Shown piece after piece: positions 13,878 through 41,519 of a stretch of DNA of 64,000 nucleotides. This DNA is from Botryllus schlosseri. Lineage: Eukaryota. A program made the position numbers and the translations under genes. The stretch's first letter is position 1. Every line of letters begins with the position of its first letter. The notes beneath the pieces were generated by a model, which worked only from the letters and a program-made list of their open reading frames with translations, was not told where the DNA came from and ran no database searches. The DNA lies in NCBI GenBank assembly GCA_051294905.1, contig CM119373.1, forward strand, positions 3,908,001-3,972,000. The letters are read 5' to 3'.

Positions 13878-15629
13878 ACTATACTATGGGTAAAAGGCAT
13901 TAAAGTCAGGTGTAACTGTGACAGCAATAATGTTCATGATCTTTATGTTCTTGGACGCATTCGTTGTCCGTCATTTTCTTACGTAATATGCGTCCATCGT
14001 CGTTTTAAAACACCTCTTGGACACTCGACAGATAGACTAGGCCTACCATCTAACTATTTCTTCGATATTGCCGCGAAGACAACTCCACACCGCTCTTAGA
14101 GAGGTCTTGAGGGCAGGCCGCAGGTGAGCCGCTGTCCGATAGCCTGTGTTAAAGACTGTTCCGAACTAGCAATGTTCAGGCAGCCTTTTCAGTGCTGCGA
14201 CAAAGACACCAACAGTGTCAGCCAGTGTTGGGATGACTCGAGTCAGACTCGAGTCACCTTTTTTTAATGACTTGACTTGACTCGAGTCACTTTGATAAAA
14301 TGACTTGACTTGACTTGACTCGGCGTATCAGAAACATGGATTGACTCGTGACTCGGAGCAAAATTCACGAGTCAATTTCAAGTCATCAAGTAATCGGTGT
14401 CGATTTGAATCACTGAATCTTGCATATGTTCGGATTGTTCGCGAAACGCTGGTGTAGCCGTGAGCGCGACCAGTCATTTAATGATCGTGTGTTCGCTCAC
14501 AAATAAATTGAACGCAAACGAAGTGATCGAAGCTTACAGCTAATGTTGTTGTAAACTAGTATGGTAAAGTAATTAATGTATGTTTTTACCTTAACCAAAC
14601 CTCTTGTTTTATTGAAATTGAATTCAAATATAGTTTATATAGTCCTCAACCATTGGCACAGGCTCGAATTGCATCATATCGATTTGTAAATGGGTAATGT
14701 ATTGCATCCTATCAATTCGTCTCTATTCTCTATTTTGGCTGCATGGCAGTGGCGGCTCGTCCTATAGGGCAACTGGGGCATTGCCCCACCTAAAATTCTG
14801 TTCAATAACAATTCTTTACCATTTATAGACGCACGCCAATCTATATATACCGAAATCACAGCGAAAATGGTATTCTTCTTGTCCTTTCGCTTGTAAATGC
14901 CCATATATAGCGAAGTCTCTGCGAAAATCGAATTCTCTTCTGTGTTTTCGCTTTGCGAATGCCTAGCCGGGGCATGCCCCGGTAGCGCTCATAACAAGCT
15001 TTCACTGTCTATTCTCTCAAAGCCGCGCACAATAAAGAAACGGTGATTTACTCCCTCCTATTCATAAAATTACCGAGCAACCGGGGCACAATAGCTCTGT
15101 GCCCCTAAGGTGTGATGTAACAATCGTATCTATAGCTGAACTCGGTTACCGTCATATGCGTTTAGTCGACCTTTGCTTAGAATTCTGATGCGGCGTTTTA
15201 ACACTGGCACTGTACTCGTTAACATAAGCCATACAGCTCAATTCAATCTTTAAATGTGCGATTCTTATTCAACTGTAACTGTAGTAAGAGCAATATGGGC
15301 GGATATCACGACGTTTTCAATAGAAATTCGAGTTGTATCAAATGGCAAATGGAGTGAATCAACGATCATGCGCAGTAATGAATTCCAATTAGCATGTCTG
15401 ATTGCATACTTAATAACACTGTCCAATTCCACGGCCCGATCAAAGAACTATCACGAAAGAACGAGTATTTGCTCAGTCGATTCATAGCAACGATGAGATG
15501 GTATTTCACGGCTCGTGCTCGTCATATCGACATGTGCAACGAAATCACGTATTATCCTGCCTCCCATTTCGCGTAAAACGTAGTGATCACTGATCATTAT
15601 TTTCGAACCGTACAATTGGCCAACAAGGT

Positions 15630-15860
15630 TATATGCTGATGATGAAATTGCGGGAATGCCGAATACCCACAATATTCACAGGCATATTTCGCATATCTCG
15701 GCACTCATGTACGAACATTGAACATATGACTGCTCTGCTGGTAAATCCCCAGGAATATGGTTGGTCGGAAAACGTAGCGTCAAAGAAGAAAAGATTCTTA
15801 ATTTCGCGAAGGCCTGCTGTTGAATTATGTGAACTCAGCAGATATGGTTGTTTCATATAA
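15630..15860 (+). pseudogene. Possible Academ-like transposase C-terminal remnant
   Basis: ALLVNPQEYGWSEN..RPAVELCELSRYGC resembles the P..YGW...P...EL..CGC tail of Academ transposases. Recognised from memory, and the sequence is degenerate. Confidence 0.35.
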
Positions 15861-15879
15861 TAGCATCTTATGAAATACG

Positions 15880-16041
15880 TCGGAGCCGGAGCTACCCCTC
15901 AAATAAACTGGCTCCAGCTCTGGCACCGGCTCCGGCTCCGGCTGAATTTTATGTAGAGCTCCGGCTCTGGCTCCAGCTCCGGTAAAAATGCACGACTCCG
16001 GGGCTCCGACTCCGGGCTCCGGCTCCGGCTCCAAAGCCCTG
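15880..16041. repeat. GGCTCC-repeat MITE fragment
   Basis: Tandem GGCTCC/GGAGCC hexamers ending in AAAGCCCTG. This is the source of the spurious PEPEP ORF. Confidence 0.7.
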
Positions 16042-16272
16042 CTTTGAAGACGGCTCAACAATTTCGTGGGGCCGACAGAAAAATTCGAAAATTTTTTTTT
16101 AGATTTTTCCTAATAAATTAAAATTTTTAATTGGATCTGCGGAGTCGGATACTTGTTAGAATTGAATCAAATTTGGTGTGCAGCGTTTTTTAGGGTAACC
16201 TGACAATGTAATCGGTGAAGGTCTTGAATCCGAGGGAAAAAGTTATTCTTGAACAGCCCTGGCACTATATAG

Positions 16273-16698
16273 CAGAGATGAGCGGATTTGAAATTTCTAT
16301 GTCCTAATCCAATCCAAATCCGAACCTTCAAATCCAAGTCCAAATCCTAATCCATAACTTTTTCATATTCAAGTCCATGTCCAATCCTAATCCGATTCCA
16401 ACTGGAAATTCAGAAAAAAACTAATTTATGCAATGGAGGGATTCGAAAATTTTCTTTTACAACCAACGATTCACTTGATTCAGGATAACCTAGTAACCAT
16501 AAGTACATTAATAACTGATTTGAATAAAGTTTGTCGCCATTCGCCACACGACATTTCAATCTCCCAGAAAATAGATAAATCCAATCCAAATCCTAATCCG
16601 TTCTGAAAAAAATGTCTAATCCAAATCCAATCCAAATCCGACAAAATTTCACAAATCCTGTTTTTTCAAAACCTAATCCTAATCCATGCTCATCTCTG
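16273..16698. mobile_element. hAT-type MITE with AATCC repeats
   Basis: TIR CAGAGATGAGC / GCTCATCTCTG; perfect TSD CTATATAG. Confidence 0.88.
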
Positions 16699-16730
16699 CT
16701 ATATAGGCATGTTAAAATATATTATGAATT

Positions 16731-19235
16731 CAGAGGTGGTCAAAGTAGTCAAGAAAGCTACTCAAGTAGAAGCAGAAGTAGCGAAGAAAAAACTACTCAA
16801 GTACGAGTAGAAGTACTTCTTCAATAAGCCGCCTAAAACTACTTGAAGTAGCAGTAGAATTGACCGACTTTAAATCTACTCAAGAAAGTAAGTAATTTTG
16901 AAAACAGTCTTAATTTGTTCGCATGGTCTGTAAAAAGCTGCAAATTGAGCTGTGCAGAAGGTGCAGATAGCTTGATTCGTATATATGCATCCCAGGAGGT
17001 GTCAATTTTCGACAGAATAAGCGTTCTTTCGCATCATGGGATGCAACTTATAGTATTGCTGTGAAAATGCGATACTAACCTTTTGTTTACTATAAGAACC
17101 CGCTTTAGAGAATATCATGGCATGGCGCCTTACCCTATACTATAAGGCCTGTTAATAACAAATATTGTGGATCGCAAAATTTGTATTTAGTGTAGCTATA
17201 ATTTCGGAAAATAGAGGCATTTGCTTTTATGCTTCAACATGTATGTTCTGCAGACAAAAGAACTAAAAGTAATTAGAACTCAAAGTGTGATACTCGCAAT
17301 TGAAAGTAAAATACAAATATCAATTCTAACAAGCGGAAAATATATTCCATGTCTTTTGTCCATGAACAGGCCGTGTTATTTTTGGCATTTCAGGAGCCAG
17401 ATGCCAAAACTGCCAAAAATAAAAATTTGAAAATGACAAAAATAACACGGCCTGCCAATAGTGTATTCCGTTCATGGTGTTGTGTTAACAGGACCGCATT
17501 ACAAGCGAGAAGATCGTGTGTGAAGGGCAGGTTTCTTACTGTATGGGTCCAGCCCACCACTTAGGGGTGAAAGCATGGTGTCCTAAATGGTGTGGGCACA
17601 GCGAGATTGAACGGCAGACTGCTTTTGGTTTACTTCATACTTTCCATTTGTCCAAAGGCAATTTAACGGCCATTTTTGACCGGCTTTCCGAGCGCTAAAT
17701 TTGATAAAACGGGTATCAATGGAAAGCTGCCGTTGTACTGTCTGCTCATGGATCTGGATCCCCCAAATTCAACCACGATTTTTGCATTGTGATCGAATTG
17801 AACATTATGACGCATCAAACAGTCTGGCTATGTCTGAGCTGTAGTCTCGTTTTGCCAGACAGTCTTGTTGTGTTAATGTGCTAATGTGTTAATGTGCTAT
17901 CTTCCCAGGACTCTTCTATGTGAGTTGGTAATATTAAAGCCATCTGACGTGACAAAATTCCTCCTAAAATATATCGGTAGACTGATGGAGATGGGATGGT
18001 CGGGCTACAAAATAGAATATGTTGAGAGACAACACAGGGAACTCCTGCAAAAGTATCGGGAAGAAAATTCTTTCCGCGATGAGATCGATGGCACTAGCGC
18101 AGCGATCTCTTTTCATGATGCTTGGAAGCCGGTTCGGCCCTCTGAAAATTTTGAAGCTACGAAAACCTTTTGTGGAGGACTGGCAACATTCTTTCCCTCA
18201 ACGGTTACTGTTGCAGCCGATAATTCCCAGATTCGTTGGGCGAAAAATGAATTCAGACCTGAGTTTGGAAGCACTGTTACAGTGCAAACAATTTAAGTCT
18301 ATTCAAAAGCTGCAACAATCAGGTGTTGAGCGTGTTTGTTAGGCTTCTCATTCTTTTTCTTATCGGCACCGATTCCGAGTGGATACTGCACATTTTGTGG
18401 TATTCGTTTGATATTATTAACCTATGTAATCGCTAGGCTTTTTCTTCTTGTTATTGTTTGTTGGTACTGATTATAAGTGGTTGCTGCACATTTTTTGGTC
18501 TTTTTTGATAAACTAGCCGAAACAAAGCGTTTTTATGACGAGTTCGAGTCTGAAGCTATCTATTTTGAGGTCGATGCCAAAACTGCCAAAAATAAAAATT
18601 GAAAAATGCCAAAAATAAGCAAGTTTTGGCATATGCCAAAAATAACACGGCCTGTCCATGAAGCTTCAAAGGTGATCTGCTAAACAGGTGTTCAAAAAGC
18701 GTTCAAAACGTTCAAAAAGCCGGGTTTTTCAGATTAACAGGACACTTCTTGGGCTGTTAGATTACGATATGATGGGTAATTGCTAGATTGCGAAACGGTA
18801 GTCTGAAACGTTATGATGGGCCATATTTACTATGATGAAATATTTGATATGGGCGACAGTGCGGTGTGAGCGTAATCAAGCAATCCGGTACCTAAATTAT
18901 ATTCACTGATACTTTCGTGGAAACGTATTTTTCACCCCATAACTACCGTGCGCCATGCGCAACAAAATTTCTGGGCATTACTTGACTTTTAGGAATATTA
19001 AATGTTGGTACTCCGTGAAAACAGCCCCGAAATTCAACAGGCTATCTTTCGAATTGGGGAATTAAACTACTTCCACTTGACAAACTGAAAATAGCGAAAA
19101 TTAAGTAAGTTGATCACAAAATATTATAAAGTAGAAGTAGAGAAAATCAGATTTACTTGAGTAAGGACCAGAAGTAGAGTAAAACTACTTGAGTACTTTC
19201 AAAAAGTAAAAGTACTTCGTTAATGACCACGTCTG
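16731..19235. mobile_element. hAT-type element with AGTA/TACT-rich ends (second copy at ~57251-58477)
   Basis: Ends CAGAGGTGGTCA / TGACCACGTCTG. Colinear with the copy at ~57251-58477 except for the insertion at 17367-18654. Confidence 0.8.
17367..18654 (+). mobile_element. hAT element carrying a frameshifted transposase C-terminal remnant (17886-18342)
   Basis: TIR CAGGCCGTGTTATTTTTGGCA, perfect TSD TCCATGAA. The remnant reads FCGGLATFFPSTVTVAADNSQIRWAKNEFR / DLSLEALLQCKQF. Confidence 0.85.
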
Positions 19236-20588
19236 ATTATGATGCCACGTTACATCAGCCTTCACCATGTCAATATTCCTGATCTGCACTCCGCTAATAA
19301 AATCGGTATATCGCACGCCCGTGTTCGAGGCTACACATTTCCGTGTCAATAATAAATTTTAATATGCTTCTATAGCTTCTCCTCCATACGAAAATACGAA
19401 TATGAATTATCTTTACGTCATATTCGATCGATATCAAATTTTTCAACTTGAGTAACTTCAATGACCAAGCTTACTGCGTTGTTTGCAAGGTGCAAAAACA
19501 TAAGCTTCTCGACATCGTCGACACACATCAAATCACTGATGCCGATATCGTATGCCGTTGAAAGCTGAGACGTGAATCCCGTCGTTTACGGGACATGCTG
19601 AATAACTAAAGGTATCTTGATGAGAAAGATGCTCATAATTATGCAATTTTACTCAACCATTTGTATCTTGTAACCATGCACATAAAGACACTTGTGAATA
19701 CATAGTCAGGGGTAGTCAGTCACTCATGGTTGATCAGAATCGAATCACCGCCGATTCTAATCAGAGTCTAATTTCCAGGAAGAAAAAGAATCGAATCAAT
19801 TCTCTATTTTAATTTGGTATTTATTATCTTAACTTTAATACTGTTGAACACGTGAACGCGCATCTATCCAATTCCTAACAAATGTACTTGTACATGTACA
19901 GTCATCAATATTTCGATGGTTGTGGAATACCATCATTATATTCTCTCGCAGTATTGATATGCTCGGTAGGGCCAATTTTGTAAATTTTACCATCTTCACA
20001 AAATTTGCCACGTTTTTCTTATGTCGGACGCATTCTCGACCACCTATTCCTAGCCAATATATTTTATCTCGAGTATATTAACTTTTCACTGGTGCTTGCG
20101 TGAAGCAAGCTCGGTCTTTCTAAAAGAACGCTAACAACTGACAACAAAGCTGACCTCTAATCTCTGCGTTGATGATACGATCAAATGAGAATTTCTCCAG
20201 AATTCCTACCTAAGTGTTGGAGGTTTATCTAGGCTCCTGCTCGTCATCTCATCCGTGTAAGCGGTGTCCTACAAAAACCTAAGTGTGCGGTACTACAAGT
20301 AGGCTGCTACGGAATAAAAATGAAAAATATCGGCCTGGTTTCAATGACCACAGTAGTCGACGAACACCATGAATACAACAAACAAACCAAATGAATTAGT
20401 ATATGGACTCAATCTACATCTACCGATTGAGGAGGAATATGGCAAAGTGTCATTATCGTCGTGTATATTGCAGTAGATCCGATATATAGCATCAAGTCCA
20501 TTATAAAAGTTTATTGTTGTTCATAAATATTAGACATCAATAGACTGATAGTAATTTCTTTGTAAATTGAAACTGTGGTCGAATAAAT

Positions 20589-22988
20589 CTAATCCACATT
20601 TAATGGTCCCCCCATAACATGTGTCTTCCCATTCAATGCACCGTAGTCTATTGCTTGTAAATGTAGCTTTATCGCTTTTACTAGCGCCGCCGCCTCTTCA
20701 ATTGACATAGCGCCTTGACTATGTGACATAGATGGTTTCTGCATCGGCACAGGATGTGATGGCGTAGCGTGAAGCTCTAGCCCACTCCCATGTAAATGAG
20801 TCATGTGGAGTGAGGTGTCTCGCTGACATCGGCTGGGTAGACCCAAGTTCTCGAACAGTGTCCGTCCCATCAATCGCAGTTGCGGATCGTCTTCAAATAT
20901 TCTCCGAACTTGATCTGAAAATTAACTTAAAATAAATATCACGAGGCATAACATTTGACATACGCATACTTAACATTTCCCTACTTAAAGTTAATTGACA
21001 CTTTAGCGTGGCGTCTTAACCAGGGGTTGTGCCATACGGCAACGAAGCATAGTCTAGGCTAGGGTCTAAATATTCTGCGTCAGGATGCAGGACGCTTCCA
21101 AGTCCATTTCCTTAAAACACTTACTGTTATCATGGATTGCACTCTTCAACTGTTCAAATGCTTCCTCAGAACTTATTGCAACGATAAATTCTCGCTTTAA
21201 TTCGTTGTACGCACTTCTGTCAATTATTGACCACTGCGCGTCACACCCATCTAGCGTCGCCAGCTTTCGGTACAGTACGACGTTTACCTTTCCAGGATCG
21301 GCCGCGGTTGCCAGACGATGTCGTATGCTACTCTGTGAAATGAAAGAGTAGCAACATATTGAAACATGGCGATAACCAGTGTTCGACGTTGGCGAATACA
21401 TTCTAAATTTATACGAATGCGTATTGACATAGCACGTTTATTGTAAGTCGCTAAGTTAAATGTTCCTGCATCAAATAAATTCGCATCGTCACAATTTCTG
21501 TCTCTCGGTATGGTGCAATCGTTCGCACAACCTAGCCATTCTTAGAAATAGAAAGACATACAAAAACTGCTGTTTGCTATACTATAGTAAAACTATTGGA
21601 TATGAGGAGGAGCAATCATTCAAATTAAACCTATCGTAGTTCGCATCGACTGTAAGGTTAGCGTTGCACTCACCTGGAAGGTCTTTTGGTGCGCTCTGGT
21701 ATAATAGGGGAATATCATGGAAATATTGCGATATATTTCGCTATTTCGTAGTGCCGCGCAATTCGCCATTTTGAACGCGAGGAAGATGGCAACATCGTAA
21801 CTTCCAGGATGACGAGACAGAGGATTCACTGCCGCCATCGCAGCTGCAGGACCCAAAATGATGTTAAGAATGTTGTTCTCGTCCAACTCCACGGAAATAC
21901 GACTTTTGTATCTTCTTTTCGTTCCTCCTCTATAACAAAAACGCGAATTATCGATAATGGAACTGACATATGCACAGGATAGTAGACGTAGATACAAAAA
22001 TAAGAGTGATTACAGTCAGATATTGAGTATAATGTAACGATTCGTCGCTACAATATTAGTTTACTAAACATTGTGATGGATAACCCCGACAGTATCAAAG
22101 CTCCATTTGTAAGCTACGCAACTTGTTGAAATGAAAATTGTTAAATGGCACCAATCATATATGTCTTTGTCTGCGGCGTTGTTCAAGTCAATGTTATAAT
22201 GATATAGGTAATCAAATATGTCTTACAAAATTCTCTTTGTGTTATCCTTCACAACGTTCAAAGAATTCCAACTTACTTAGTCCTGGAATTCATACTCTCA
22301 TTCGCCTTTCGTCGAAGATCAGAGAAAGAATACGATTTCCAACCAATCCTGTCGAGGAGGATTCGCAAATTTTCGGGGGATTGGGGGCCAATTTCTGGAT
22401 GCAAAATACGTGTGATGCCGTTGTGTTGCGATTCAAAAACATTGTACGCAACTTCGACGTCTGGCGCGCCACGGGATTTATCATGGTTTTGATTCTGGAG
22501 TAGGAATCGGTTGGGGGCGATGAAATGACGTTCATTCTGCAAATATTGCGGTTGTACTGGGACAGACATTTCTAGTTCACACACGGGATCGCAGTTTCCG
22601 AGAATTTGATCTTGCTCCGGATGGAAGTATCTGGAATATAAAAATAAAGGTCCATGCTCTGAACAACATCATTCAAGACAAAATTCCACGATACAAAGTC
22701 AATCAGCGAGGCACGATAACAAACTAGTTTTACGTAGGGTTCCAGTGGAATCGAAATCACAAAGTTTTGTAATGCTTACCGGAAATTTGTTGCGGTATTT
22801 TGCCAACTAGACAGTGGCGCGGTGTTTTCCACATGTCTCTTTTTGCGTGGTGGTGTCGGCAAAGAGCTTGTGACAATCTCTGAGTAAAGTTCATTGACAA
22901 AATTCACGGCATCTTCATCGCTCCAGCGACATGCGGTCGGGTGTTGTAAGTCGGCGAATTGGTTTCTTTGGTGAAAGCCGCTGCGTTG
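20589..22988 (-). CDS. Divergent forkhead-box (Fox) transcription factor, ~450 aa; first exon uncertain
   Basis: Five phase-consistent GT-AG exons (22780-22988, 22277-22630, 21674-21929, 21125-21332, 20589-20914; 1353 nt, no internal stop). Forkhead domain RHPGSYDVAIFLAFKMANCAALRNSEIYRNISMIFPYYTRAHQKTFQ|SSIRHRLA...QWSIID versus consensus KPPYSY..LI..AI......LTLSEIY..I...FPYY......WQNSIRHNLS...W.LD, with a phase-0 intron at the WQ|NSIRH position. NLS-like PPRKKR. A possible ATG micro-exon lies at 23056-23061 (MS). Confidence 0.85.
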
Positions 22989-23314
22989 CTGTAAAATGAC
23001 GAAATATGTTATGAATATGTACCAGGTAGCCTATATAATTGATGGACCATGTTACTGACATTTTATTTTAAAATTCGGGGTAATTCACTAGATATTTATA
23101 TTGTTAGGAGAATTTGTGGTTATTCCCATGACGCTATCCGTTTAAATATAAAATCTCACGCGATCATTACTTCTACTTGAATTTCCTATTCGAATGCTAT
23201 TATATCGTAAATGACCTTTCTAAATTTTTCAATGCCAGTACCATTTCCTAAATTCGAATACGTATAACTTTCTGTTGTGCGAATTCGGGTGACATTACCT
23301 TACGTATAGTTTGC

Positions 23315-26300
23315 TCACATGCGTATCGGCAATGATATTTGCTCTGTTATGTTTGACCCGATATAGACTTTCGCAATGATAGGCTCAGTTGATATAGATA
23401 TAATTCCACTACTTTGGAGGATAGATATACAATGCGGCAATGCTCTGAAATTTAGTTCTTCAAATAATACTAAGGCGATATAGTGGAGCAAATATCTGAT
23501 GTCTTGGTCAAGACAAATACAGTAAATCTTATAACGACCTACCTCGGAATCCCGCACTACTTGCTCAAGAATATCTGGACATCTTTGGCGTTTCATACTG
23601 CACTGCTGCCTTCGTCAAGTAGTACGTAAAATCAAATGACTCAAATACAAATGTAATGGGTTTTAAATCCACCTTATCGCGGGTCAATTTGATTGGATTC
23701 TTGAAATTTCTCTCTCTTGCATACAATAGTCGATACATTTTGTTGGCTGGTGCAACAACTTGTAATTAGGAGATAAGGGTCCGTCTACTGCGTTACCTGA
23801 TATAACTTGATAGATAATTCCTCTAGATTAATGGCCAATTAGGCGAAGGTATATCAATAGTCTTACTCAGCGACACAAGTTCAATTAAGGTGATTTCATC
23901 ACAACATCCATTGCAATAATACATTTATGATAACTCGAAGACTCTTTGATACTTCTTTTCAATTGTAATCGGAATAATAAAGGGATTCAAATATATTCCA
24001 AAATAAAATATTGGCCTATTAGTCGAATGTATCAATCGTTTGATCCTGCGCATCAAAGTCAAATAAGGAGCTTTGATCACAACATCCATTGCACTAACAC
24101 ATTGGTGATAATTCGAAGACTCTTGGGTGCTTCTGATCAAGAGTTATTGGCACAATAAAGTTCTTCAAACATATTGAAAAAGTTAAATTGGGAATTGAGG
24201 CGGGAATTTTGAAATTACCATTGAAGATGTAAGTTAGAAATCGTGTCTCTGTGCCAATTGGTATGCAAATTAATGCCATGTTCATTTTACAGATACGTAG
24301 GAACGTCACATATTAGCCGATCTGGTCGATCCTACGAAATTATTCGATACTCAGCGCCTATTGGAACCTATTTCATGGCTTCGAAACAACTGTCACGTTT
24401 CGTGATATAGTGTGCGGCTACATAGAAAGTAGATCAAAATTGATGAACAGCATCATTCGATATTCCCGCGGATTTCTCGTCACGACAATACTAAGCACGA
24501 CAATTTTCCAGTATATTAATTCTACCGGAATATTGACACTTGAAAACTAAATCAAAGAAAGGTCTCTGTACTACTACGGTCACAATCCGACAGTGCTTTT
24601 CGACAGCTGCGTAGTATATTCTTTGGTCGACACTTTGACCGTTGAATGCTCCAGTGATGTGCGTTTGGGGGAATCAAGTGAGGCAGGGCCTCATCTGTCG
24701 TCAGGATGAGTAAATGAAAATTGCGGAGATCTCCGATGATGATTGGCATTTCCTATTGTTCATGAATCACTAAATTTTGAACATTTTTACACCCAATATA
24801 AAGCGAATTTGGATATTTTTTTTACATATTGCGTGAAGGAGACGTGGGCATGGAGGAAACAAATACGAAGTAAGCCTCAACTGTGATAGCGCAATTACTC
24901 ATAAAATCGCGGAATTTATATTAACTGGTATTAATGGAATGCTACCGCCTCACTGATTACAGAAATCGGAATATTGATAGTTCTGGAGCATCAATATCCC
25001 TCGAAATCGCTAGGACTGTGGAATTCAGCGGAGAGAAACAACATCCCAGTAAGGCACAGAGTAATTTGCATCGGTGATTGTTGGTTCAACAATGGCAGAT
25101 CAGTGAAAGAATGCTCTGTCGCAGTGCCTTTCAACCTGTGTGACGTTTCGCACTTGTGCGAATGAAAAAAAATTGCAGTGCCAATGACTAAGGTGGTGCG
25201 AATGAAAATCTGGATCAAGTGCGAATGAAAAGCGTGATTAATTGCTAATTTTTTTCTGACGTAGGATAATTCAAATAAACCTAATAGAAAAGCTAAGGTC
25301 TGTGTAACTTTTGTAGTTGCGACGCAATTGTAAAAAATTGCAAAAAATCGTGCGACAGTTTTTAAATATCCAAGGTCACGGTGCTGGGTACTGTAGCATA
25401 TAAGTGAGACACGAAGAAAATATGGCTTTATCATGAGAATTATTCATGATAAGATTTTTCCGACTGTTTTTGTTTTCTGGAAAACATGAACAAAGACCGT
25501 TGGGATGAACTAGTATAGGGGTGTGCAACGAGCGAATTCAAGCCTATGAGACTCAGCCATTTCGAGGTCCACTCCTTCTGCGTCGGGGAACATGAAGACG
25601 TAATGTTTTGGCCAACAAACCACTGATAACATGCGATGCCAAAACATAAGCGGCGACAAAACCTTGGTCTAAGAATGGCCTATGCTGGATGGACAAACCT
25701 TTCGATATGGATATGCTCTGTTGTCGCGTTGTCGGCACGGAATAGTCCCGTTCTTGCAATCTCATTAGACGGTATAGTATAACTGTGACACGTGGAGGAA
25801 TTTAATACGCCTCCATTTGAAATCGCGTGCTTCATACTAATCATACATGTTTTGTAGAGCTGTGTTCGGTAGAATTGTGGTGTGCATAACGTCATACATG
25901 TCCGTAAAATCGTAGCATACAGCTGTAATATTAAAAGTAAATTCATTTTCATTTGTGAGGCTGAGGTCGCGAGATGCCACAAAGATTTTGGCGGTATTCT
26001 AAAAGCTGCTTGAGCGTTATTAAACTGTTATGAATTCTCATGTTAAATTGAGGTAAAGAGCAGAACACACAGTATCGTGAATTTATTTGCTTCTCTCATA
26101 TCCTCTCCATACAGAAGTTGGAGGAACGTATCACAAGGTAGTGAGCTCCAATGTATGCCTACTCTCGTTTTGCACCGTATGTTCCATGACATAAGGCAAA
26201 AGCCTCAACACAAACATGTACGTTTTTCCCCTGTCGACAAACTGGAGCCTCCGGGACCTTTGTGTTAGTTCCCAAAAACGATTTCTGCCAGCAAGCATTT

Positions 26301-30423: not shown

Positions 30424-31019
30424 CAGGGTTGTAACCAAGTCACAATGCTCCGAGTCACAAGTCAATCTCACTTTTATAGATTTGACTCGAGTCAAGTCGA
30501 GTCATTTTCAATTCGCCACCGAAACAAGTCCGAGTCCAAGTCATCGAGCAGAGGTTCGAGTCCGAGTCATGGTATTATGACTCCAGTCCAAGTCCAAGTC
30601 ATTGTGTTGACTGCTCAGTTTCCAGTTAAAGTCTTGTTAAACATACTGTTATAACTCTGTTTTGTGATATCGAATGGTTCGCATTTATAATATACTGATT
30701 TTTCTCACTTTTAATAGTTTCTGATCGCAATTTCAAGTACCAGTACCAATAGACGAAATCCCAATAGGGTGGTTACTTTACTATTCTTCGAAATTGCAAT
30801 GAAATGTCGGTCTTAGCCGTCTGAGTCTCGAGTCATATGACTTGGTTCGAGTCATGCGCAATGACTCGAGTCCAAGTCGAGTCAATACACATATTGACTC
30901 GAGTCGAGTCGAGTCATTTCCGTATTTTGAGAAAATGACTCGAGTCAAGTCGAGTCATCAGAAAATTGTGACTCGAGTCTGACTCGAGTCGAGTCATGAC
31001 TCGAGTCATTACAACCCTG
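30424..31019. mobile_element. hAT-type MITE (CAGGGTTGTAA family)
   Basis: TIR CAGGGTTGTAA / TTACAACCCTG, TSD TGCAATTC / TGGAATTC, GACTCGAGTC arrays. Relatives at ~3262-3532, ~7820-8000, 36489-38512 and ~56900-58561. Confidence 0.85.
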
Positions 31020-31611
31020 TGGAATTCTCAAATCCTGTTCAATTTCGGACAGCATAGACTGGATTGTCGACATGAGGATGCTGTAAAATCGAGAATATAT
31101 CGTCACATCAGCGAGTCATGCGCCACGCAAAGCCAAACGTTATTGGCATCAACTTTTCGGAGCCGAACTCTCCCTGAACTTCGAGGTATGACGTCAATAT
31201 CTAATAGGCCAAACGTCCTTTATGTGGTCACCATTAGTTTTCGATCACGGTTTAAAAGATGAGCTGAGACTTCAAATCACAGTTATTTGATGACTTCCTA
31301 AGACTATAGCTCAGCAACTAGAATTTTGTATCGCAATTCGAAATCTGCAGGATTTCCCGGGATTAGCGAATTAGTAAAAGGCACACACAAGCTACACAAG
31401 CAACATTTATTCCATCTAATATTGACGCAATAACATGCTCGCGTGAATACGAATCAAACCCAGCGATCAAAAGCCGCTCAGATAATGAGCGTTTAAATTC
31501 GTGTACCGTCTGTTTCGTATAGAAGTTGATTCGATCTCATCTTCATTTTTGGCAGATCTTCCTTTGACATGTCCGATTGAGTCATGTGTACTATTACTAT
31601 TATGTGTATAT

Positions 31612-33032
31612 TAGGGTTGCCATACGTCCGGAATTTCCCGGGCATGTCCGGAATTTCACTGAAAAATTTGCGTCCGGGAGGAATTTCTAAAATATGCCTA
31701 AATGTCCGGAATTTTGAAGGCTTGAAGCAGGCTCAAAAGTTTTTCGTAAATCAACATAAACAATATTATTTTCAAGCAGATTTATGCTATTCAAAATTGT
31801 TCTTCACGCCGCGCGCGAGTTTGCAACGTATAAGGATATTATTATGGGCTTCAGGCACCACCCTCGCAAAAAAATGCAATCAAAATAAATATAAATAACC
31901 ATTATTTACTGAAATAAGTCTGATTGTAATCGCAATTATAAGCTAACGGTATATTCCTAGAGTTGGTTAAGGCTGATTGGATGCTTCAATCACATACAGT
32001 GGCTCCAAATCTTGGGGTCGTCCGCCTTTATCTGGAGATCGCGATGATGTTGAACGTAATCAGCTTCCTATGCCGTGTGCAAGTTTGGGCAAGCTGAATT
32101 TTTTTTAGTAATCTGCTTATCAAGTTTTGAGCTTTGCCACGGAACATTTTCTAGTGGGAAATGAGGTCGCGAGCATAAAAGGTTGGAAATCACCGGATTT
32201 GCAACCTGCTAGTGCAGTGGTTCTCAACCTTTTTTTGACGCGCCCCCCTTTTTAATAGTGAAAAATTTCGCGCCCCCCTTATCTTCATATCACAAAATCC
32301 AACTGGGATGCTAGCAACCCCAACAGATTGTTTGGTGGTATGGTCGCGGTCGGTTATGAATGTTGATGAGAGAATAAAAAATATGAAATTGCGTCTATAT
32401 AGAGAAACACGCCTGCATTGGAGGCAAATCGCGCAAAGCCCCCTTCAGATGTTTCACGCCCCCCAAGGGGGGCGCGCCCCCAGGTTGAGAACCCCTGTGC
32501 TTGTGCATTTTATAGTAGGCTAATATATCGAAGAATCAATATTATTGACAGAATTCATACATAAAATATAACAGCCAAATGCATATAGTAAGTGCCCACC
32601 AAGTTACATCGACTACCCTATGGTGGGCCCAAGATCAGTGCTTTCTGGGCGGAAGGGGGGAGGGGAGAAAAAAATGTTGTTTCGGACCTGATTAAAGCAC
32701 ATAAACAGATAGCCGCACCGACCTAACTGTATAGCAGGGCTGTCAAACACAATCCTGACAGCCCAGACACGGCCCGCCAGATGATTTCATCCGGCCCGTG
32801 GAGTCATCTATTGCTAACCCTAGCAAGTAGCAATCACCAGAGCTCACATTACATATGGCCCAATTCATGACCTATGTTCCACTTCATTCCTGTATAGTGT
32901 ATACAGTCGATGGGCAATGCTTTGCTAGTGTGACGTCATATTTACGGCCAATGTGTTACACCTCATTTTAAAATCCGCTAGGGGGCGCTAAAGAATGTCC
33001 GGAATTTGCTTCACAAAAATATGGCAACCCTA
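31612..33032. mobile_element. hAT-type element (TAGGGTTGCCA) with nested MITEs
   Basis: TIR TAGGGTTGCCATA / TATGGCAACCCTA, perfect TSD GTGTATAT, TCCGGA subterminal repeats. Confidence 0.88.
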
Positions 33033-34600
33033 GTGTATATACCTTAAATGTGTTATCAGTCCCTTTTTGCTGGACCCTGAAACTTTCAAAACGTCTTGAC
33101 ACAAGATGCATTTGGCTTTTTCTGCAGATTTGCAAAACAAAAAGGTTTGCCATACATCTAATTTTTTCATCGCACTGACATCTCCGAAATTCGCCATTAT
33201 CCCGACCTGTATTTCACCACCATGGCACCATATTGTAACGCTCTGACACTGTTACGATCCGTAGACTACGACGGAAGGGATTGTGTAGTTCATTTCTACG
33301 CCCTAGTGGATTTTAATATCGCATAATTCTTAATTTTTTTAGACGATCGAGTTTGTGACACTGTTTTATTGTCGAAATAAGAGATATTGCGCTACGTAAG
33401 CCTTGGTACATGCTGTTTACGAATCCCGGGGTTTCATTGGGATTAATCCCGGGATCGGGATTTCCCGGGGTCCCAACGCTACTCGCAACCCAAGCCTCAC
33501 ACATAACAGAATGCATGTTTATGATTATTATGCTGCAATTTTACGAACATGTAGGATACGATATAGAGAACGCCCAGCCAACAGTTGTGCGCAATTCAGC
33601 TTCAGGCCCATGAAGCATTTCAGGCTCACGCGATTTCAAATTGAGGCGCGTTATTTTCCTCTATGGGTCATAATTGTTTTGAATTTGTACTACTGTCTTC
33701 TGAAATTCCAAGGATGGAACGGTGCCCAACATTTCGGCGACCGGGCATATCAATGTCCAGTCCACGGTTTTGAGCAATGAGCCACGGTCGTTTCTGACTA
33801 AAGTTTTATTGTCGCCGATCTTGTTGGCATCGCACTTTGCCCGGTTCCGGTGCGGAGGGGCTTGGTGTAGAAATAGGCTACCGGCTTCCCACATCCGCTA
33901 ATTGCACATCCCTACATTAAAGCGTCCCATGAATTAAGCCAATAGCTTATGGTTAATACAAGGGTCGACAGATTCCCATGATCAGGCAATAGTGCAGTAT
34001 TTTTAACGTTTTTCCGTGTCTCGCTGATTTGCTCTAGTGCCCAACACATTTCACTCACATAATTGCGTACGAACTATACCCGCAATGATTTCTACGTACC
34101 TAAAAATTCAACAAATATTACATAACATACACACTAAAGATCGCTGGGATGTTGTCGCGAGTCGCGACCCAAAATTATACTCTTCGCGACCCATGTATTG
34201 GTCGCGACCCTACTTTGAGAACCAATATTACGCGATTAGCATGTATGTAGCCTACGTGACCGCGTATGGTTCGAATCGAACGTTCGTAATGCCTTGTATT
34301 ATGTAGGTCATACTCAAATGTGCTCAGTAACGATATACTTCTACTATTTTAGAGTACTCAAGGTTTTTCCTACAGCCTCTTGTATTTTACCTACCTTACG
34401 TCTGCTCAATGCTAAAATCAAACATTCTCTTCCCCTTTAACGTCAATGGCCTTTTCGGCGCCGCATATTAGCCAATACTTCACCTGATATATCCCGATGC
34501 ATTGCCGCATTTTATTTTCGTGGAGGTTTGTCCCTATCGTCTTACCAAGCCAATCTATCCATTTCTCCGTTTTATTGTTTCATTGACAGTGTGTTTTACT

Positions 34601-35719
34601 GAGTGGTGCCACTCCTAGTGTTTTAACACTAGATTTAGTGTTTTTTCGGTCGTCCTAGTGTTCTAGTGTTTTTTGTCGCACAATTTTGCTAATCTAGTGT
34701 TTTTCTGCAATTGTGCGAACAAGAAATATTCTAACATTGGATTACTAAATTAAACGCTAAATTTATCGCTAATAAGGCGATTTGGTGTCCCTGGCGGTGT
34801 TTGTTTTCAAAAATTCTATGTGGTGGTTCAGTAAGAAGCAATTATTACGTAACAGGGTGCTGCGCTATGAATCCGTATTTATGAGCGAATGTCTCGGAAA
34901 AAATGAAGATACGATTTCGCTATAATGCTCTGTCGTTTCTTGTTGAACTCACTCAGCAGATTCGGGAAAGATTTGCATTTGCCGAGGACAGCATACTTTC
35001 GTACATGAGTTGTATTGAATCCGTTAACAGCCTTGTCAACACAAAGAAAAATAGAATCAATCGTTCCTCTAGCTGTGCAACCTCCCTCTATGATATTATT
35101 TGATGAGCTCAATTATGTGTCGGAAGAATGGGCTGCTTTGGCAAATTTGCAAAATGAGCTGCAAGTTATCAGTCAATGCCATCCAACATAATTTTGGCGA
35201 AAATTAAAATATGTGCACAATGGATTCGGTGAATCAAAATTCCCTTTACTGAGGAAGCTCATGCCGAATCTCTTGGCATTGCCACATTCTGCTGCATGCA
35301 TGGAAATGAAGTATGCTGCACAGCACATGGACACCTCCCCATTGTTTGGTTGAAGATGTACGGTAGTGACCAAGATGCCACACAAAAGATACTTATGTTT
35401 GGTCGATGGTGTAGGCCTACAATCAAAAGATAATTTTCATGATGCTGTGCGATTCGAAAGCGACACTATTTGATTTGTTCTTAGTCTGTTGAATTCGATT
35501 CATTACTTTTCGTTGAATAATCATGCAGCATATCATACATATGTATCGAATCCATGTGTGGAACACTTCTTATCTATGGATTTGTACCTTGGTCATCATG
35601 ATTACTTGACCATGGCAAATTTTTCCTGCAATTTACTAATCTAGTGTTTTTTTCGGCAATCTAGTGTTTTTTCACGACACAATCTTGTGTTTTTCCAGAA
35701 ACCTAGAGTGGCATCACTG
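34601..35719. mobile_element. hAT-type element with CTAGTG repeats
   Basis: Ends GAGTGGTGCCACTC / GAGTGGCATCACTG; CTAGTGTTTTT subterminal repeats; TSD not preserved. Confidence 0.6.
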
Positions 35720-35977
35720 TGCTGGTATAGGTCGATTTTGATGGTGTTTCACACCATGAAAAATCTTGAAACTTGGTATAGGCCTATGTCATGTCGTGAT
35801 GGTGGTATTTAACACTGCCCCAAGTTTCAGGGTTTCTACTTAAAGTTTAGGGTAGTAATTCCGTTTCTGATGTTGAGTGTGTGCTGATCCATCATGTATC
35901 GCAAAAAGATTTTACTGAAAAGCCGGTATTGGTATCCATTGATTTTGACGATGTTCAATACTGAGATCGGTTATGAC

Positions 35978-38897
35978 TAGGGCGGTTTTTTTTGACATGT
36001 CAAAATTTGTCAAAATTTTGTCAAAATTGTAGCGTTGGGTCAAAATTTGTCAAAAATTTTCATAAAATTAAAATAAAATTGACGTCTGCATTTTGTTTGT
36101 ATTGTAGATTTAGCACTGTCGGTGAACTTATAATTTGTTATTTTACCGCTTTTAGCCTATTTTATAGGCCTACCGTTGTAAACGGCTAATCGTCTGCTCA
36201 TTGTGAATCATAAACGCTAAAAAAAAACAAATAATAGGTAGAGATGGTGTTATGGTCAACGTACCGCAGTATTCTAACTGAAGAAAGACTTCTTGTGCAT
36301 TGCGTCATTCTTATATTAAGAAGCACACGATGAAAAATTGTGATGTAGACAACATTGTCAGAATGAAGCAACACGGTGTGTCACCAGCACCAGCAGTGTA
36401 CGCACAGCTTGAGTGTTGTCGGCCAACAACTGCTGCTGTTGAACGTCCTTGACAAGCTTCTTAGTAAGGACGTGCACTTGCTATTGCTCAGGGTTGTAAC
36501 CAAGTCACATGGTTCCGAGTCACGAGTCAATCATACTTTTGTAGTTTTGACTCGAGTCGAGTCGAGTCATTTTCAATTCATCACAGACTCGAGTCCGAGT
36601 CCAAGTCACCGTTTAAAGGGTCAAGTCCGAGTCATGGTGTTATGACTCGAGTCGAGTCCAAGTCACAGTATTGAAGTCATGTTCAACTCATGTTTTCAAT
36701 CCTGCCTGGGTGATATCGAATTCCCTGTTTGCGAAACATGCTCATTTTGTCCCTATCAGAGTCTTGGCACGTGTTTATTTAGGCAGATAACGGACAGGCC
36801 CTGGCCTCATTTACCGATGCTAAAGATAACTTTACTAATCTTAGAACTTAAAATCAAATATCTCTCTTGTCAGTCTGATATACATCACCAATACAAGCAT
36901 TCAGTTTTTATTATGAACACATCGACGATAGCTCATGAATAGCTGATAGAGAACCAACAAATTCACGTCAAGATACTAGTTGATAGAGAATCAATAGATG
37001 CATGTTTATGTAGAGGTATTTACAACAGGCCAGCATGCTGTAAAAGCGTGCATGCAACTATGTGCATTGTGCAGTGACAACAGAACAGATACCTTTTGAT
37101 TATACCAAAGGTTTTCCCAATTGCATTACAGACTACATCGCAGTTACAGCATTGGAGAAATAATTGTACAATGGAGCTGTTCAAAAACATTTTTTCAAAT
37201 TTTCCGGCTACTTCTTAAAATTGCTAGATTGCCTAAAAATCAAATTTGGCTCAATTCCAACCAGTAGAAAGCTATGAAAGAAAATTTTAGACTAATTACA
37301 AATAGAGATCTTCGAATTTTACCGGCTATCTCATGATATTGTTACATTGTGTAAAAATATGATTCATAGCGAATTTGACTCAATTCCAACTAGAAAAAGT
37401 GAAGTTATTAGAGTAGAATGTTTTGGATATGAAAAAATAGTCGGCTTACTACTATGTAATTATAATATATGAAAGAATTTCTCACTAAAATACTCCATTT
37501 ATTTTCAAATCCAAAATATTCTCCTCTCACATCATTGATTCCACTTTTTTCAAATTAAGCCAGATTCAGTGTTCCTTTTATGCAACATAACAATTTTATC
37601 ATGTAACCACCCAGTAAAACAAAAAAGAAGATATTTTAGAACAGCCATATTGTACAAACATCACACAACATTAGCCATTCGTTATTACTCACGTGTACGT
37701 ACAATGCACATACCTAAAAAAAACGTCAAATGGACGAGGGGCATTGTGTGTTTTCACATACAGCAGATCAAATCAATGAGTTACACCTCAAAAATACTAA
37801 TGTGGAAAGGAGATCCTCAAATGCGTTAAAGCGGCATGGCCGTAGAATGAATCCATACATCTACTGAATACACGTTCCACTAGTGCACTAGATGCAGGAA
37901 TTGACAAGCATTTTTGAACCACACTGAAGAGCATTGAATACTCTTTCTTTCTAGTCGCCCAAAAATGCAAAGAATCATCGCCTTCAAATCTACACATCAG
38001 CTTATCAGTCTCTTCACCATCTGAGTAATTTCATTCGCTCTAATTGAACTTTGATTCAATTGTTTGCTTGCATAATTGAAAAGTCTTGAGTAGCCTACTT
38101 TAATTGCGCAGGATCTATTACCTCTTCATCATTGGACGATTTTGTACAATGCATTGCTACTATGTATCATTTTCTGTTGTTTTTACGGCGGCATATCTGA
38201 TATCAGACAAGTGCAACGAAAGCAGTGGTGACAAATAGCGATGTCGGCAGAATTCGTCGGATGCGTTGATCTAGCCATTTTGATTCGCCAATTTCTTCAT
38301 CTTCAAGTCATATAAAATAAGCCGAGTCAATGACTTGGGTCGAGTCATGCGTAATGACTCGAGTACAAGTCGAGTCAATCCAAATATTGACTCGAGTCGA
38401 GTCGAGTCATTTTCCCATTTCAAGAAAATGACTCGAGTCAAGTCGAGTCATAAAAAAATCGTGACTCGAGTCTGACTCGAGTCGAGTCATGACTCGAGTC
38501 ATTACAACCCTGCTATTGCTACCCATGAATGTAGGAAAGCATCTCTCGTTGTACTGCGAAATATTTTAATTATTTCTACCATAATACATATTGTAACCAC
38601 TGGAATTCTTCATAGGGCCAGATTTCGTTAAAATATTGTTTTTTTTTCATGTAAAAACATGCCTGTTTCTAAGCCAAAAACGTTTTTTTCAGGCCAAACT
38701 ACTTAGTTAGGACAGTCAGTTCCAACCAGAAATGAAGATAAGTGGTGCAATTTCAACATTATGTGGGTAAACACCTAATTTGCATACGTTAGGTCAAAAT
38801 TTGGTCAAAATTCAGTTTTTTTAGGTCAAAAAAAGTCAAAATTTTGATTTTTTTAGGTCAAAATTTTATGTTTTTTAGTTAAAAAAAAACCGCCCTA
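35978..38897 (+). mobile_element. hAT-type element (TAGGGCGG) with a transposase remnant; second copy ~60220-61110
   Basis: TIR TAGGGCGGTTTTTTT / AAAAAAACCGCCCTA, perfect TSD GTTATGAC. The remnant QPTTAAVERPFSILGKLLSKDRHF is clearest at 60526-60804. Confidence 0.85.
36489..38512 (-). mobile_element. hAT element (CAGGGTTGTAA) with a hATC dimerisation-domain remnant
   Basis: Perfect TSD CTATTGCT. 37797-37997 reads DDSLHFWATRKKEYSMLFSVVQKCLSIPASSALVERVFS. Confidence 0.88.
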
Positions 38898-41519
38898 GTT
38901 ATGACATTTGGCAAGGTAAGTCTTAATGTTAGTATCAAACGCTGTACCGAGTTTTAATTTTGTCACTGAACTGCGTTTGTGGTAATTTCGTTTCCTTATT
39001 CGAGTGAGAGCTGACTCGTCATTTATCGCTAACAGATTATACGCAAAGCCGGTATTGGTCTCTATTGATTTTAACGATGCTCCTTACCTAGATCCGTCAT
39101 GAGCTTTTGCACGGTATGTCTTGATTTTAGTATCGAACGCTGTGCCAAGTCTCTAGGTTGACACTCAATGATTAGGGCAGTAATTTCGTTTTCAAGGTCG
39201 AGTATGGTAGAGATGTGCTCCGATCTGACACTTTAGCCTACAACGCATCGCGGATTTCACGCAAAAGCCGGTGTATCTGCGGTAACGTTAACTGAGATGA
39301 TGATATCATTCTCAGTTTGCATTCAAATATTTACTTTGATATTATATTCTCCAATGTCAATTTCACTATATTTCACCGTGAAATTGTGCCCTTCAAGCCA
39401 TTTGCTTAGAACCCCTTGTCAAGCGCGATAGGCTGATAGCTATTTCGTTTTCGTTGGCGGCTAACAGCTGATCACTTGATCAGCCTATTCCTCAGTAAAT
39501 TTTACGCAAAATTCGGTGTTGGTCTGTTCGCATTAATTTTGACAGTGTACCATACCGAAAAGGGCCACGAGGCCACTTCTCGGTGATGTCATGTAACAGT
39601 GTACTAAGTCTAAGGCTTTCATCCATGTATTTATTCGGTAATAAATTTTCCTAAGGCGATTTCGCAGCAGACCTATAGACAGTAATAAAGCCGTATGTGT
39701 CGTGTTACAGTCTCCAGTTTCAAGGCCAAAATCTCCTATGCTGTACCGAGACCGAATTTCCGAGGCTGCTATTCTTAGTTCTTCAGAATGATGTTTTGGA
39801 TTCAATATGACAGGCCCAATCTATGAGATAACCATTGCGTATCTGTCCGAACTCGTTGACCTTTCCAATTAGGCTTACGCTATCTCTCGAGTTATAGTCA
39901 TTTCCATTTCTGCAGATAATTAGTCAGGTCTAGTGCGAACATGAACCGTGTTGAATCTTTGTTCCGTACGCCGTTTACGCAGTTACTTAGCCAGTTACCA
40001 CACTTCAAGTCGCAGCTCACCGGCGGACCTCTCGTGGCACATACGTTAAAATCACTGTTGCCGGGAAATTCATTTTACCGTACCATCATTAAGTTACCTG
40101 TTTACGTTGGAAAACGCTATTGTGACGTCATGTTGATAAAAAGTCGCTTGCATCCCTTGCCCCACCACCCGATATTGTCACGAGCCGCCACTGCTGCATG
40201 GTAGCTATTCACTGTGGTCTAGCAGTTCTACGTATATGTGAGCGATACAGCGCCTTCTTGCGTGCATATTTAACTCTATATTCGTTCATCGGTTCAAAAT
40301 CAATGACCACTCAATCTGTATTTCAGACAGCTTGCAAAATGCAATGACGCTATCATGCCCCATACTTCGAAAAGGCTACTTGACTTGAATTGTGACTTGA
40401 CTCGTGACTTGACTTGACTTGACTCGACTTGACTCGAGTCACCTCCAAAAATCGAGTGACTTGACTTGACTCGAGTCACCTTAGAAAATCGATTGACTTG
40501 ACTTGACTCGAGTCAAAATGGGCAATGACTCGAAATGACTCGTGACTCGAAGGTAGTGACTTGATCCCAACACTGGTGTCAGCATGGTATAATGATCCGA
40601 TTTTCATGAATGCTCGGGAATTCGTGCACAATGGTGTCGTTAACGATGCAACAGAGCGTGTGAAAAAATTATGACCGACCACGTTGCGTATAGGCCTATA
40701 TACCATAGTTGACGAAAAACAGCAAGCCTGTTCCTTACAAGCTGTGGAAGATTACAGGCAAGGATTTTAAAGTTTAGAAAAACCAGCCCTTTAGTTCACC
40801 TCATTAGTTTTGATTTTTGCCAAATTAATCCATTTCTTTGTCATGTTGTTTCGTTTCGTTATCCATTTCTCGGTTAAGTTGTTACTTTCATTAAATAATT
40901 GGATGTTAATGATGTCGCTGTGCGAGTGGATGGTACATTTACGGTTATATTGTGTGACATGGTTATTCGCGCAAAACGATGAACAGTCTTGGGTGTCAGT
41001 CTTAGCCCCGAGATCTCAGTCTGAGGAATGCTAAGGCCGTGTGCATTATGAAAATGATATCCTGAATCAAAATAATATAAATAGCAAGGTTTTGTGTCAC
41101 TCCAAACCATAACAGCTGCATGCAACCGGGTATTTATTGCATATACTAGGCTCGGAAACATCGCGGCTCTCAAATCACAGGGAATTTCCCATTTTAGGCC
41201 GAAAATGCTCCCACTTCAACATGCCCAGTGCCCACAGATGCAGGGATGAGTTACAGAAAAAAAGCAGCTAGAATACGTTTTTAAGGTATAGGGCACGGGG
41301 AACGGACTGAAAACCACGACTTTTTGAAAGTCGATCGGTTCTGAACAACCCTCAATTGTAGTAGGTTTGCGTTTTCGTTTTCGGCGCAATATACGCTGAG
41401 TAATATTGCATTTATTGCGACTTGTAATTCACTTGTACAGGTTATTTGGATATTGACAAATCGTAGGGACATGTGATCATCACAGTAACAATCTATAGTT
41501 GTATATTATGAGTAGAACT

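Follow-up and report, generated by a model that had tools for sequence, protein, structure and literature searches.

A 64,000-nucleotide stretch of Botryllus schlosseri DNA (GenBank assembly GCA_051294905.1, contig CM119373.1, positions 3,908,001 to 3,972,000; hereafter the window) contains a short transposable element (TE), E1, that has been split by 20.5 kb of DNA, mostly older chromosomal sequence with a divergent forkhead-like (Fox) gene in it. E1 is a young, high-copy, approximately 1.94-kb non-autonomous miniature inverted-repeat transposable element (MITE) of hAT type, and exactly one copy is present in the window, split twice by separately bounded inserts. The gene-bearing block entered E1 as DNA, since both E1 and the outer MITE in which it sits have their halves and their pairs of target site duplications (TSDs) intact around it. 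That E1 was the landing site of the relocated segment and not its vehicle, and that the segment came in by an aberrant or macro-type hAT event at the end of another MITE, R3, is a reading to which we give about an even chance. An earlier note on this DNA had proposed instead that the 25.4 kb between 14747 and 40193 form one cargo element of the E1 family. A 25-kb hAT element with a host transcription factor as cargo, if true, would be a rare natural case of whole-gene mobilisation by a DNA transposon, but this is removed because the pair of terminal inverted repeats (TIRs) belongs to a common 2-kb MITE.

Comparison of the window with a 495-Mb, 219-contig genome assembly enabled the definition of the E1 family. 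At the E1 junctions ctgcatgg is followed by the TIR CAGTGGCGGCTCGT (14739-14760), and ACGAGCCGCCACTG is followed by ctgcatgg (40180-40201), so that the 8-bp TSD CTGCATGG stands on both sides. The 14-mer CAGTGGCGGCTCGT has two exact inverted matches in the window plus one match with two mismatches at 20877 (0.09 expected; three or more in 0 of 100 shuffles). In the 354 bp that follow the left TIR, the window has 98-99% identity to at least 39 further copies (40 scored of 1304 candidates). The likeness ends at E1 position 421-431 in all 29 other loci fetched, and in 22 of these the right-hand 600 bp of the window copy (39594-40193) are found approximately 1.35 kb from the start of the element. 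The seven loci without a nearby right part comprise six with a nested insertion of their own, at positions 421, 460, 598 or 1087-1088 (three copies), and one with an internal deletion. Among six copies fetched at greater length, four have both exact TIR cores, lengths of 1941, 1936, 1927 and 2520 bp and perfect 8-bp TSDs (GGATATAC, TCTGCCAT, CTACCTTA and GTGTGTTG), one is full length with a diverged tip, and one is interrupted at position 1088. A canonical copy maps collinearly onto the window in three parts (1-431, 425-675 and 670-1941). The proposed cargo element thus gives way to an element of about 1.9 kb whose other copies are short, and to a cargo with boundaries of its own, at 15177/15178 and 35719/35720, which is one of the outcomes that the earlier note had named as refuting its proposal.

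E1 is itself nested. The outer MITE junctions are gtgtcagc followed by CAGTGTTGGGAT (14215-14234) and ATCCCAACACTG followed by gtgtcagc (40564-40583). The 12-mer TIR has two matches in the window, with 0.30 expected and two or more in 5 of 100 shuffles, and the identical 8-bp flanks strengthen the case for this pair. An uninterrupted 910-bp relative of the outer MITE (locus L061, 217-1126) matches 14234-14741 at 88.5% and 40211-40575 at 94.9%; as it is intact across the split, everything between 14741 and 40211 is an insertion into the outer MITE. The letters, the shuffles and this copy therefore bear out the earlier note on the TIR and TSD ends at 14747 and 40193, on their nesting within a second TIR pair and on the order of nesting, and the intron-containing gene did reach the locus as DNA after the MITEs existed. 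The second split of E1 is due to element B, a clean nested insertion that is separate from the 20.5-kb insert. The ends are hAT-like, as had also been said, with 8-bp TSDs and CAG...CTG TIRs; E1, R3 and B all have 8-bp TSDs and short CAG/TAG TIRs (CAGTGGCGGCTCGT, CAGTGGTGCCACTC and TAGGGCGGTTTTTTTT, respectively). The consensus of hAT TSDs is nTnnnnAn, with which those of E1 and R3 agree only in part.

These observations leave one way of keeping the 25.4 kb together, namely that the whole was transposed into the outer MITE as a single non-autonomous hAT element, the block having been acquired by E1 at an earlier locus. The perfect 14-bp TIRs and perfect 8-bp TSD favour this, as do the youth and very high copy number of E1, which imply a recently active transposase, and the mobility of hAT elements of 10-28 kb in maize (PMC9910405, in part). 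A second copy is not expected after cut-and-paste, and since such a move leaves no trace the idea keeps some probability. However, it demands the same unexplained entry of the block plus one extra transposition, and has no positive support: none of the 29 other E1 copies has the block, the junction of E1 with the cargo is unique, and nested insertions into a resident E1 are common, as the six among those 29 copies show, along with a seventh that has the internal deletion. Nor are the same TIRs found flanking Fox paralogues elsewhere, as the earlier note had suggested they might be, there being no match to E1, or to R3, in 61,694 bp fetched around these paralogues. We therefore regard transposition of the whole as unlikely.

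The insert in the first split of E1 is 20,542 bp long (15178-35719), made up of the 19,423-bp block and R3, and is not clean, only 4 bp of E1 (TGCT) being duplicated around it. At the left edge (15177/15178) E1 (...GACCTTTGCT) gives way directly to internal sequence of R2 (TAGAATTCTGATG...), a high-copy repeat to which it is unrelated, and approximately 190 bp more of R2 upstream of this breakpoint are conserved in six other R2 copies. At the right edge the tip of R3 adjoins E1 exactly at 35719/35720 (TGCTGGTATAGG; flank TGCTGGTA), which is consistent with a caveat of the earlier note, that the cargo might have been brought in by another element inside. The two flanks of R3 differ in the window (left GTTTTACT, right TGCTGGTA), and its first TIR base is G, against C in 13 of 13 other copies checked (family TIR CAGTGGTGCCACTC). 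Of nine R3 copies from a search with the right end, seven have identical 8-bp flanks, one (L048) is one base off, and one (L049) is represented by the right flank only. A tenth copy lies cleanly inside another E1, at C10:12.83 Mb (TSD GTTTAGTC), 12 bp from the window site, showing that R3 is able to enter E1. The TSDs of these ten copies begin with GT in five cases and with GTT in three, as does the left flank in the window, and 11 of 39 other R3 copies are like this flank for several bases past the TIR. An R3-like target at the left flank favours R3 having been resident in the block before the move.

The same border can be read in the opposite order. R3 would then have inserted normally into E1 (TSD TGCTGGTA), and a later break at its left tip would have captured a 19.4-kb fragment by end-joining, with loss of GGTA and the first TIR base. 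Exactly these 5 bp (GGTA+C) are absent between TGCT and AGTGG at the insert, no TE end marks the block on its left side, the clean C10 copy of R3 is a precedent only 12 bp away, and E1 positions 413-460 have been struck by other TEs in two further copies (L004 and L017). On the other hand, GTTTTACT and the bases before it would have to mimic an R3 target by chance, where GT begins 5 of 10 R3 TSDs against about 1 in 16 at random and the likeness of the flank to other R3 copies is extended, and end-joining capture of 19 kb is rare. This order of events also seems improbable to us, and R3 already resident in the block is preferred.

The relative ages of the parts suggest how the segment travelled. 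Measured without gaps, and against best-scoring copies only, identity between the window copy and its family is 98.4% for E1, 93.6% for R2, 91.4% for R3 and 93.5% for the MITE at 17361, and because the last three are older than their host E1, the block arrived as one piece. Both junctions are unique, with one full-length match of 40 scored for E1/R2 (1756 candidates) and one of 40 scored for block/R3. Among other copies of the Fox unit, a paralogous segment within the block, the best is 89% identical to the window, and single-copy parts of the block find nothing better than about 82% elsewhere. The lack of a near-identical donor favours a cut-and-paste move and disfavours copy-based repair, in which a break at R3/E1 would have invaded another R3 and copied its 19.4-kb left flank, in the manner of synthesis-dependent strand annealing or break-induced replication, before a microhomology join to E1. 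R3 is dispersed enough to be usable as ectopic homology (222 candidates in the genome search), and there is a possible 2-4-bp microhomology (GC.T) at the E1/R2 junction. The template should nevertheless survive at high identity, given that E1 is only about 2% diverged, and neither a second block/R3 junction nor a closer copy of the Fox unit was found, so that copying is distinctly improbable.

Misjoining of the block into E1 during assembly was considered for the same junctions, both of which lie between high-copy repeats. None of the contigs shown from four sequencing runs bridges the E1/block junction, these contigs being short and other E1 copies swamping the signal; loose contig ends at 15177 derive from such other copies. 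Against an artefact, the two repeat families that meet at the left junction are unrelated and are joined where they have no homology, and E1 resumes after the insert where it had broken off (431/428). Chimeric joins would have had to arise twice, independently, and in its unique parts the block shows 0 differences from contigs of what is probably the source sample. We consider an artefact very improbable.

From this anatomy, with its copy numbers, unique junctions and relative ages, we infer the following order of events and role for a transposase. E1 would first have inserted into the older outer MITE (TSD CTGCATGG), while R3 was already resident elsewhere in the DNA of the block, where GTTTTACT is a site typical of its targets. 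A transposase would have cut the intact right tip of R3 and joined it to E1, the left tip with its C-to-G mutation staying with its flank, and E1 would thus have received, at position 428-435, 19.4 kb of old chromosome plus R3. At its far end the segment would have been broken 19.4 kb away, inside R2, either at a second hAT element that has since been excised (a macrotransposon plus footprint) or at a plain break closed by end-joining; either route could leave 4 of the expected 8 bp of duplication (TGCT). Such a cut-and-paste move would have relocated one forkhead-like gene, and B would have inserted into E1 separately (TSD GTTATGAC). In its strict form, that an R3 with one dead tip dragged 19.4 kb, with a constrained, intron-bearing forkhead-like gene, into a young MITE in a natural cut-and-paste event of 'one-ended' or macro-type, this scheme is offered tentatively, as possible rather than probable.

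Several points weigh against the scheme. The insert has only one hAT end and a duplication of 4 bp, not 8, and so is no textbook macrotransposon, and the left boundary of the block shows neither a TIR nor any other TE end. A donor scar (R2-breakpoint...GTTTTACT) had 0 matches in the genome when searched as one exact pattern, and neither a second hAT end followed by GTTTTACT nor the 5' fragment of R2 is present elsewhere in the window. The ages depend on the best-scoring copies, the target preference of R3 is drawn from 10 copies, the read contigs do not span the join with E1, and E1 may have moved once more after taking up the insert. A local hop, in which the part from R3 to the right end of the outer MITE moved across the block, was rejected, the outer TSD GTGTCAGC being intact and the window having none of the R2 or hAT-end remnants just named.

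Table 1. Features of the window, in order of position (window coordinates)
Feature	Position	Strand	Details
Outer MITE, left TSD GTGTCAGC	14215..14222		Identical 8-mer at 40576-40583
Outer MITE, left part, TIR CAGTGTTGGGAT	14223..14746	+	Last 8 bp (14739-14746), CTGCATGG, are the E1 target site
E1 piece 1 (positions 1-431), begins with TIR CAGTGGCGGCTCGT	14747..15177	+	98-99% to 39 other scored copies
R2 repeat without ~190 bp at 5' end	15178..16043	+	Right end ...GGCTCCAAAGCCCTG; breakpoint inside repeat
Relocated block, 19,423 bp, older TE-littered genomic DNA	15178..34600		Single-copy as a whole in the genome
1.3-kb MITE, 28-nt TIRs	17361..18660		Nested in another TE (~16731-19235)
11.4-kb paralogous Fox unit	19907..31351		~73 bp short of the right end common to C1 and C13 copies
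Five open, conserved exon-like segments of a divergent forkhead-like gene	20592..23030	-	Candidate; partial gene model
Candidate forkhead exon 2 (SSIRHRLA...)	21072..21332	-	After acceptor tttcacag
Candidate forkhead exon 1 (...HPGSYDVAIFLAF...YYTRAHQKTFQ)	21674..21835	-	PF00250 21.6 bits; donor CAG/GTGAGT
256-bp repeat insertion, window-specific	29793..30048		Inside Fox unit; RNA reads over it
Window-specific MITE, TIR CAGGGTTGTAAC	30424..31019		TSD TGCAATTC/TGGAATTC; not in C1 and C13 unit copies
hAT-like MITE, TIR TAGGGTTGCCATA	31612..33032		TSD GTGTATAT both sides; 94-96% to other copies
Old repeat with BED zinc-finger remnant (open reading frame 33033-33251)	33033..33485	-	PF02892 27.1 bits; ~80% to 942 candidates
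R3, complete 1.1-kb (1,119-bp) hAT MITE	34601..35719	+	Left TIR GAGTGGTGCC, left flank GTTTTACT, right tip ...GGCATCACTG
E1 piece 2 (positions ~428-675)	35720..35977	+	TGCT repeated from the end of piece 1
Element B, 2,920-bp non-autonomous hAT-type, 16-nt TIR TAGGGCGGTTTTTTTT	35978..38897		TSD GTTATGAC at 35970-35977 and 38898-38905
E1 piece 3 (positions ~670-1941), ends with TIR ACGAGCCGCCACTG	38898..40193	+	Collinear mapping, exact TIR
Outer MITE, right part	40194..40575	+	First 8 bp are the second E1 TSD copy CTGCATGG; then outer TSD GTGTCAGC at 40576-40583

The gene carried by the block had been described as an intact, spliced Fox gene. An intron-split forkhead-like gene is indeed present, and the description is a fair one, with the reservations that the domain is very divergent, falling below the Pfam cut-off, and that the gene model is partial. 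A 341-bp phase-0 intron with canonical splice sites divides the putative forkhead domain. Exon 1 scores below the gathering cut-off of 27 bits for Forkhead (Table 1), covering, as a half-domain alone, positions 3-55 of 88, and is not in the genome-wide PF00250 list. It has weak matches to PDB sequences, 10 of 14 of which are forkhead proteins (best FOXA1, E=0.0039). Exon 2 by itself has no significant match, in the Pfam scan of open reading frames (ORFs) or otherwise, and for exon 1 no protein relatives were found in a word-indexed database and only one spurious repeat protein among 1.84 billion representatives. The evidence for a forkhead domain is weak but consistent.

All five segments are open in the window and in one copy on C1. 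A second C1 copy carries stops, and frameshifts are found in forkhead exon 1 of the C13:23.55 copy and in forkhead exon 2 of the C13:23.24 copy. Over the two forkhead exons, the ratio of nonsynonymous to synonymous divergence (dN/dS) between the window and the two C1 copies is 0.26-0.30, and synonymous divergence (0.13) equals that of the intron, so that the gene family has been under constraint. The window copy is apparently a functional member of a lineage-specific, multi-copy, intron-containing forkhead-like family. In a bulk RNA run, of which about 6% of reads were taken, depth is zero over 21004-24987, a result that does not show the gene to be silent. Two other samples yielded contigs that are 95-99% identical to parts of the Fox unit.

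The distribution of the family was also noted. Two near-twin gene copies lie 117 kb apart on C1 (11834066-11836465 and 11950997-11953378), and both closer and older forkhead-like copies are found on C13, at 20.17-20.21, 23.24-23.55 and 24.11-24.29 Mb. At least two of the close copies are pseudogenes with frameshifts.

Within the block, single-copy stretches (among them 16044-16730, 19236-19906 and 33486-34600) separate the repeats. The Fox unit has other copies at C1:11.82-11.84 Mb, C1:11.95 Mb, C13:23.24-23.25 Mb and C13:23.55 Mb, with 85-91% identity, giving at least five copies on three chromosomes with the window included; of these, only the copies at C1:11.82-11.84 Mb and C13:23.24-23.25 Mb were traced to both ends of the unit. 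More diverged fragments of it are found on C13. The unit was considered as a TIR element in its own right (CATCAATAT...) and rejected, as the copies differ by about 80 bp in their ends and the one in the window is without the right end. No transposase is found inside, as the earlier note had said: the sole transposase-like trace among the ORFs of 15-36 kb is the BED-finger remnant in an unrelated old repeat, autonomous partners not having been searched for genome-wide. The note's 'NLR-like pseudogene', on the other hand, was not recovered, since neither the 127 ORFs of at least 54 aa in 15-36 kb (E up to 0.01) nor the 103 ORFs of 38-53 aa in 23-34.6 kb (E up to 0.05) contain any NACHT or LRR match.

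The highest RNA-read depth of the mapped stretch, about 30 per strand, is at 29636-30300, and 29789, 29893 and 30046/30047 are points at which many of the reads run off. The pattern suggests that 29793-30048 belongs to a transcribed short repeat family, possibly resembling short interspersed elements.

Some further observations concern the repeats themselves. The R2 interior GTTTTAACACTGGCACTG (15200-15215) is like the R3 subterminal GTGTTTTAACACTAG (34601-34632), and the two repeats may be related or may have transposase-binding motifs in common. In E1, the region at approximately 413-460 has been struck independently at least four times and looks like an insertion hot spot: by R3 at GTTTAGTC in C10:12.83 Mb (L076/L081), by the window insert at 428-435 (15160-15177 and 35720 onward), by a different TE at the same 8-mer position (GTGTAGTC) in C6:17.10 Mb (L004), and by another TE at about 460 in C11:18.29 Mb (L017). 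The E1 copies L003 (C11), L016 (C14) and L035 (C1), which are each interrupted at 1087-1088, may represent a subfamily in which an older nested insert was amplified together with its host; in L035, E1 resumes approximately 1.65 kb past the interruption.

MITEs built on tandem GACTCGAGTC/GACTTGACTT motifs occur at least six times in the window (14235-14322, 30424-31019, 36489-36653, 38330-38512, 40390-40533 and ~53.8-54.2 kb), and their TIRs differ (CAGTGTTGGGAT versus CAGGGTTGTAAC). Two very high-copy repeats at 11954-13399 adjoin the outer MITE on its left (17,402 first-look candidates), one of them with 95-99% identity to its copies. The region at 11.9-13.3 kb was considered as a paralogous flank in common with the Fox loci and was rejected, the likeness being due only to high-copy repeats that are also present beside the Fox paralogues.

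Nested MITEs are ordinary, and the relocated block is of modest interest as a single natural example, as yet unconfirmed, of macro-type or aberrant hAT mobilisation. What it offers is a dated sandwich, an old block in a young MITE in an older MITE, from which it follows that gene-bearing DNA of about 20 kb moved recently and left no copy behind; one border of the relocated DNA is exactly at a hAT tip. The products of macro- or alternative transposition that we found in the literature come from maize and rice genetics only. Were a clean natural case to be established in a genome of another kind, it would mean that gene order and the dispersal of gene families are shaped more widely by this mechanism. 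If a one-ended or macro-type hAT event did occur here, it could be one route by which the gene family has spread over three chromosomes. These statements concern a single locus, unconfirmed at the population level.

In alignments with known Fox factors, the candidate exon 1 falls on helices 1-2 of the FOXA and FOXN domains, and the start of exon 2, SSIRHRL, resembles NSIRHNLS, the motif of the forkhead recognition helix. The family differs from them in scoring below the Pfam cut-off, in having no relatives found in large protein searches and in being lineage-specific and multi-copy.

Among nested elements, the closest likeness is to Ds-like non-autonomous hAT MITEs, with which those of the window share short CAG/TAG...CTG/CTA TIRs, 8-bp TSDs, high copy number, the lack of transposase and the placing of element within element (E1 in the outer MITE, B in E1, the 31612-33032 MITE in the block and R3 in E1 at C10). 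Unlike them, one insert here is 20.5 kb long, consists mostly of old chromosome and has a TE tip at one side only.

A host gene between transposon TIRs also recalls Pack-type capture, or transduplication, of which hAT-mediated gene amplification in fungi is an example (PMC6710886, in part). There the captured piece is family-wide, in several copies, whereas the block is absent from every other E1 examined, and the gene in the window is whole and retains its introns. Composite insertions, produced in maize by reversed-ends alternative transposition with re-replication, are 14-23 kb long with 0-4 bp of microhomology at internal joins (PMC4270019, in part), and are alike in joining TE ends plus flanking DNA at a comparable size. 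They differ in having TE termini at both borders, an 8-bp TSD and a retained donor, where the window has one terminus and no retained donor.

Ac/Ds macrotransposons, in which two maize hAT elements move the 10-28 kb of DNA between them and leave excision footprints (PMC9910405, in part), have been described from maize, whereas the genome here is of animal type. Macrotransposons have a hAT terminus at either border, in direct orientation, and an 8-bp TSD. At the insert, a hAT terminus is present at the right border only (the R3 tip), the left being R2 interior, and the duplication is TGCT in place of an 8-bp TSD; a fit would need later excision of the left element, which is able to hide this feature. 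What the insert has in common with macrotransposons is a gene-bearing host segment of tens of kilobases that appears to have been moved as DNA by hAT ends.

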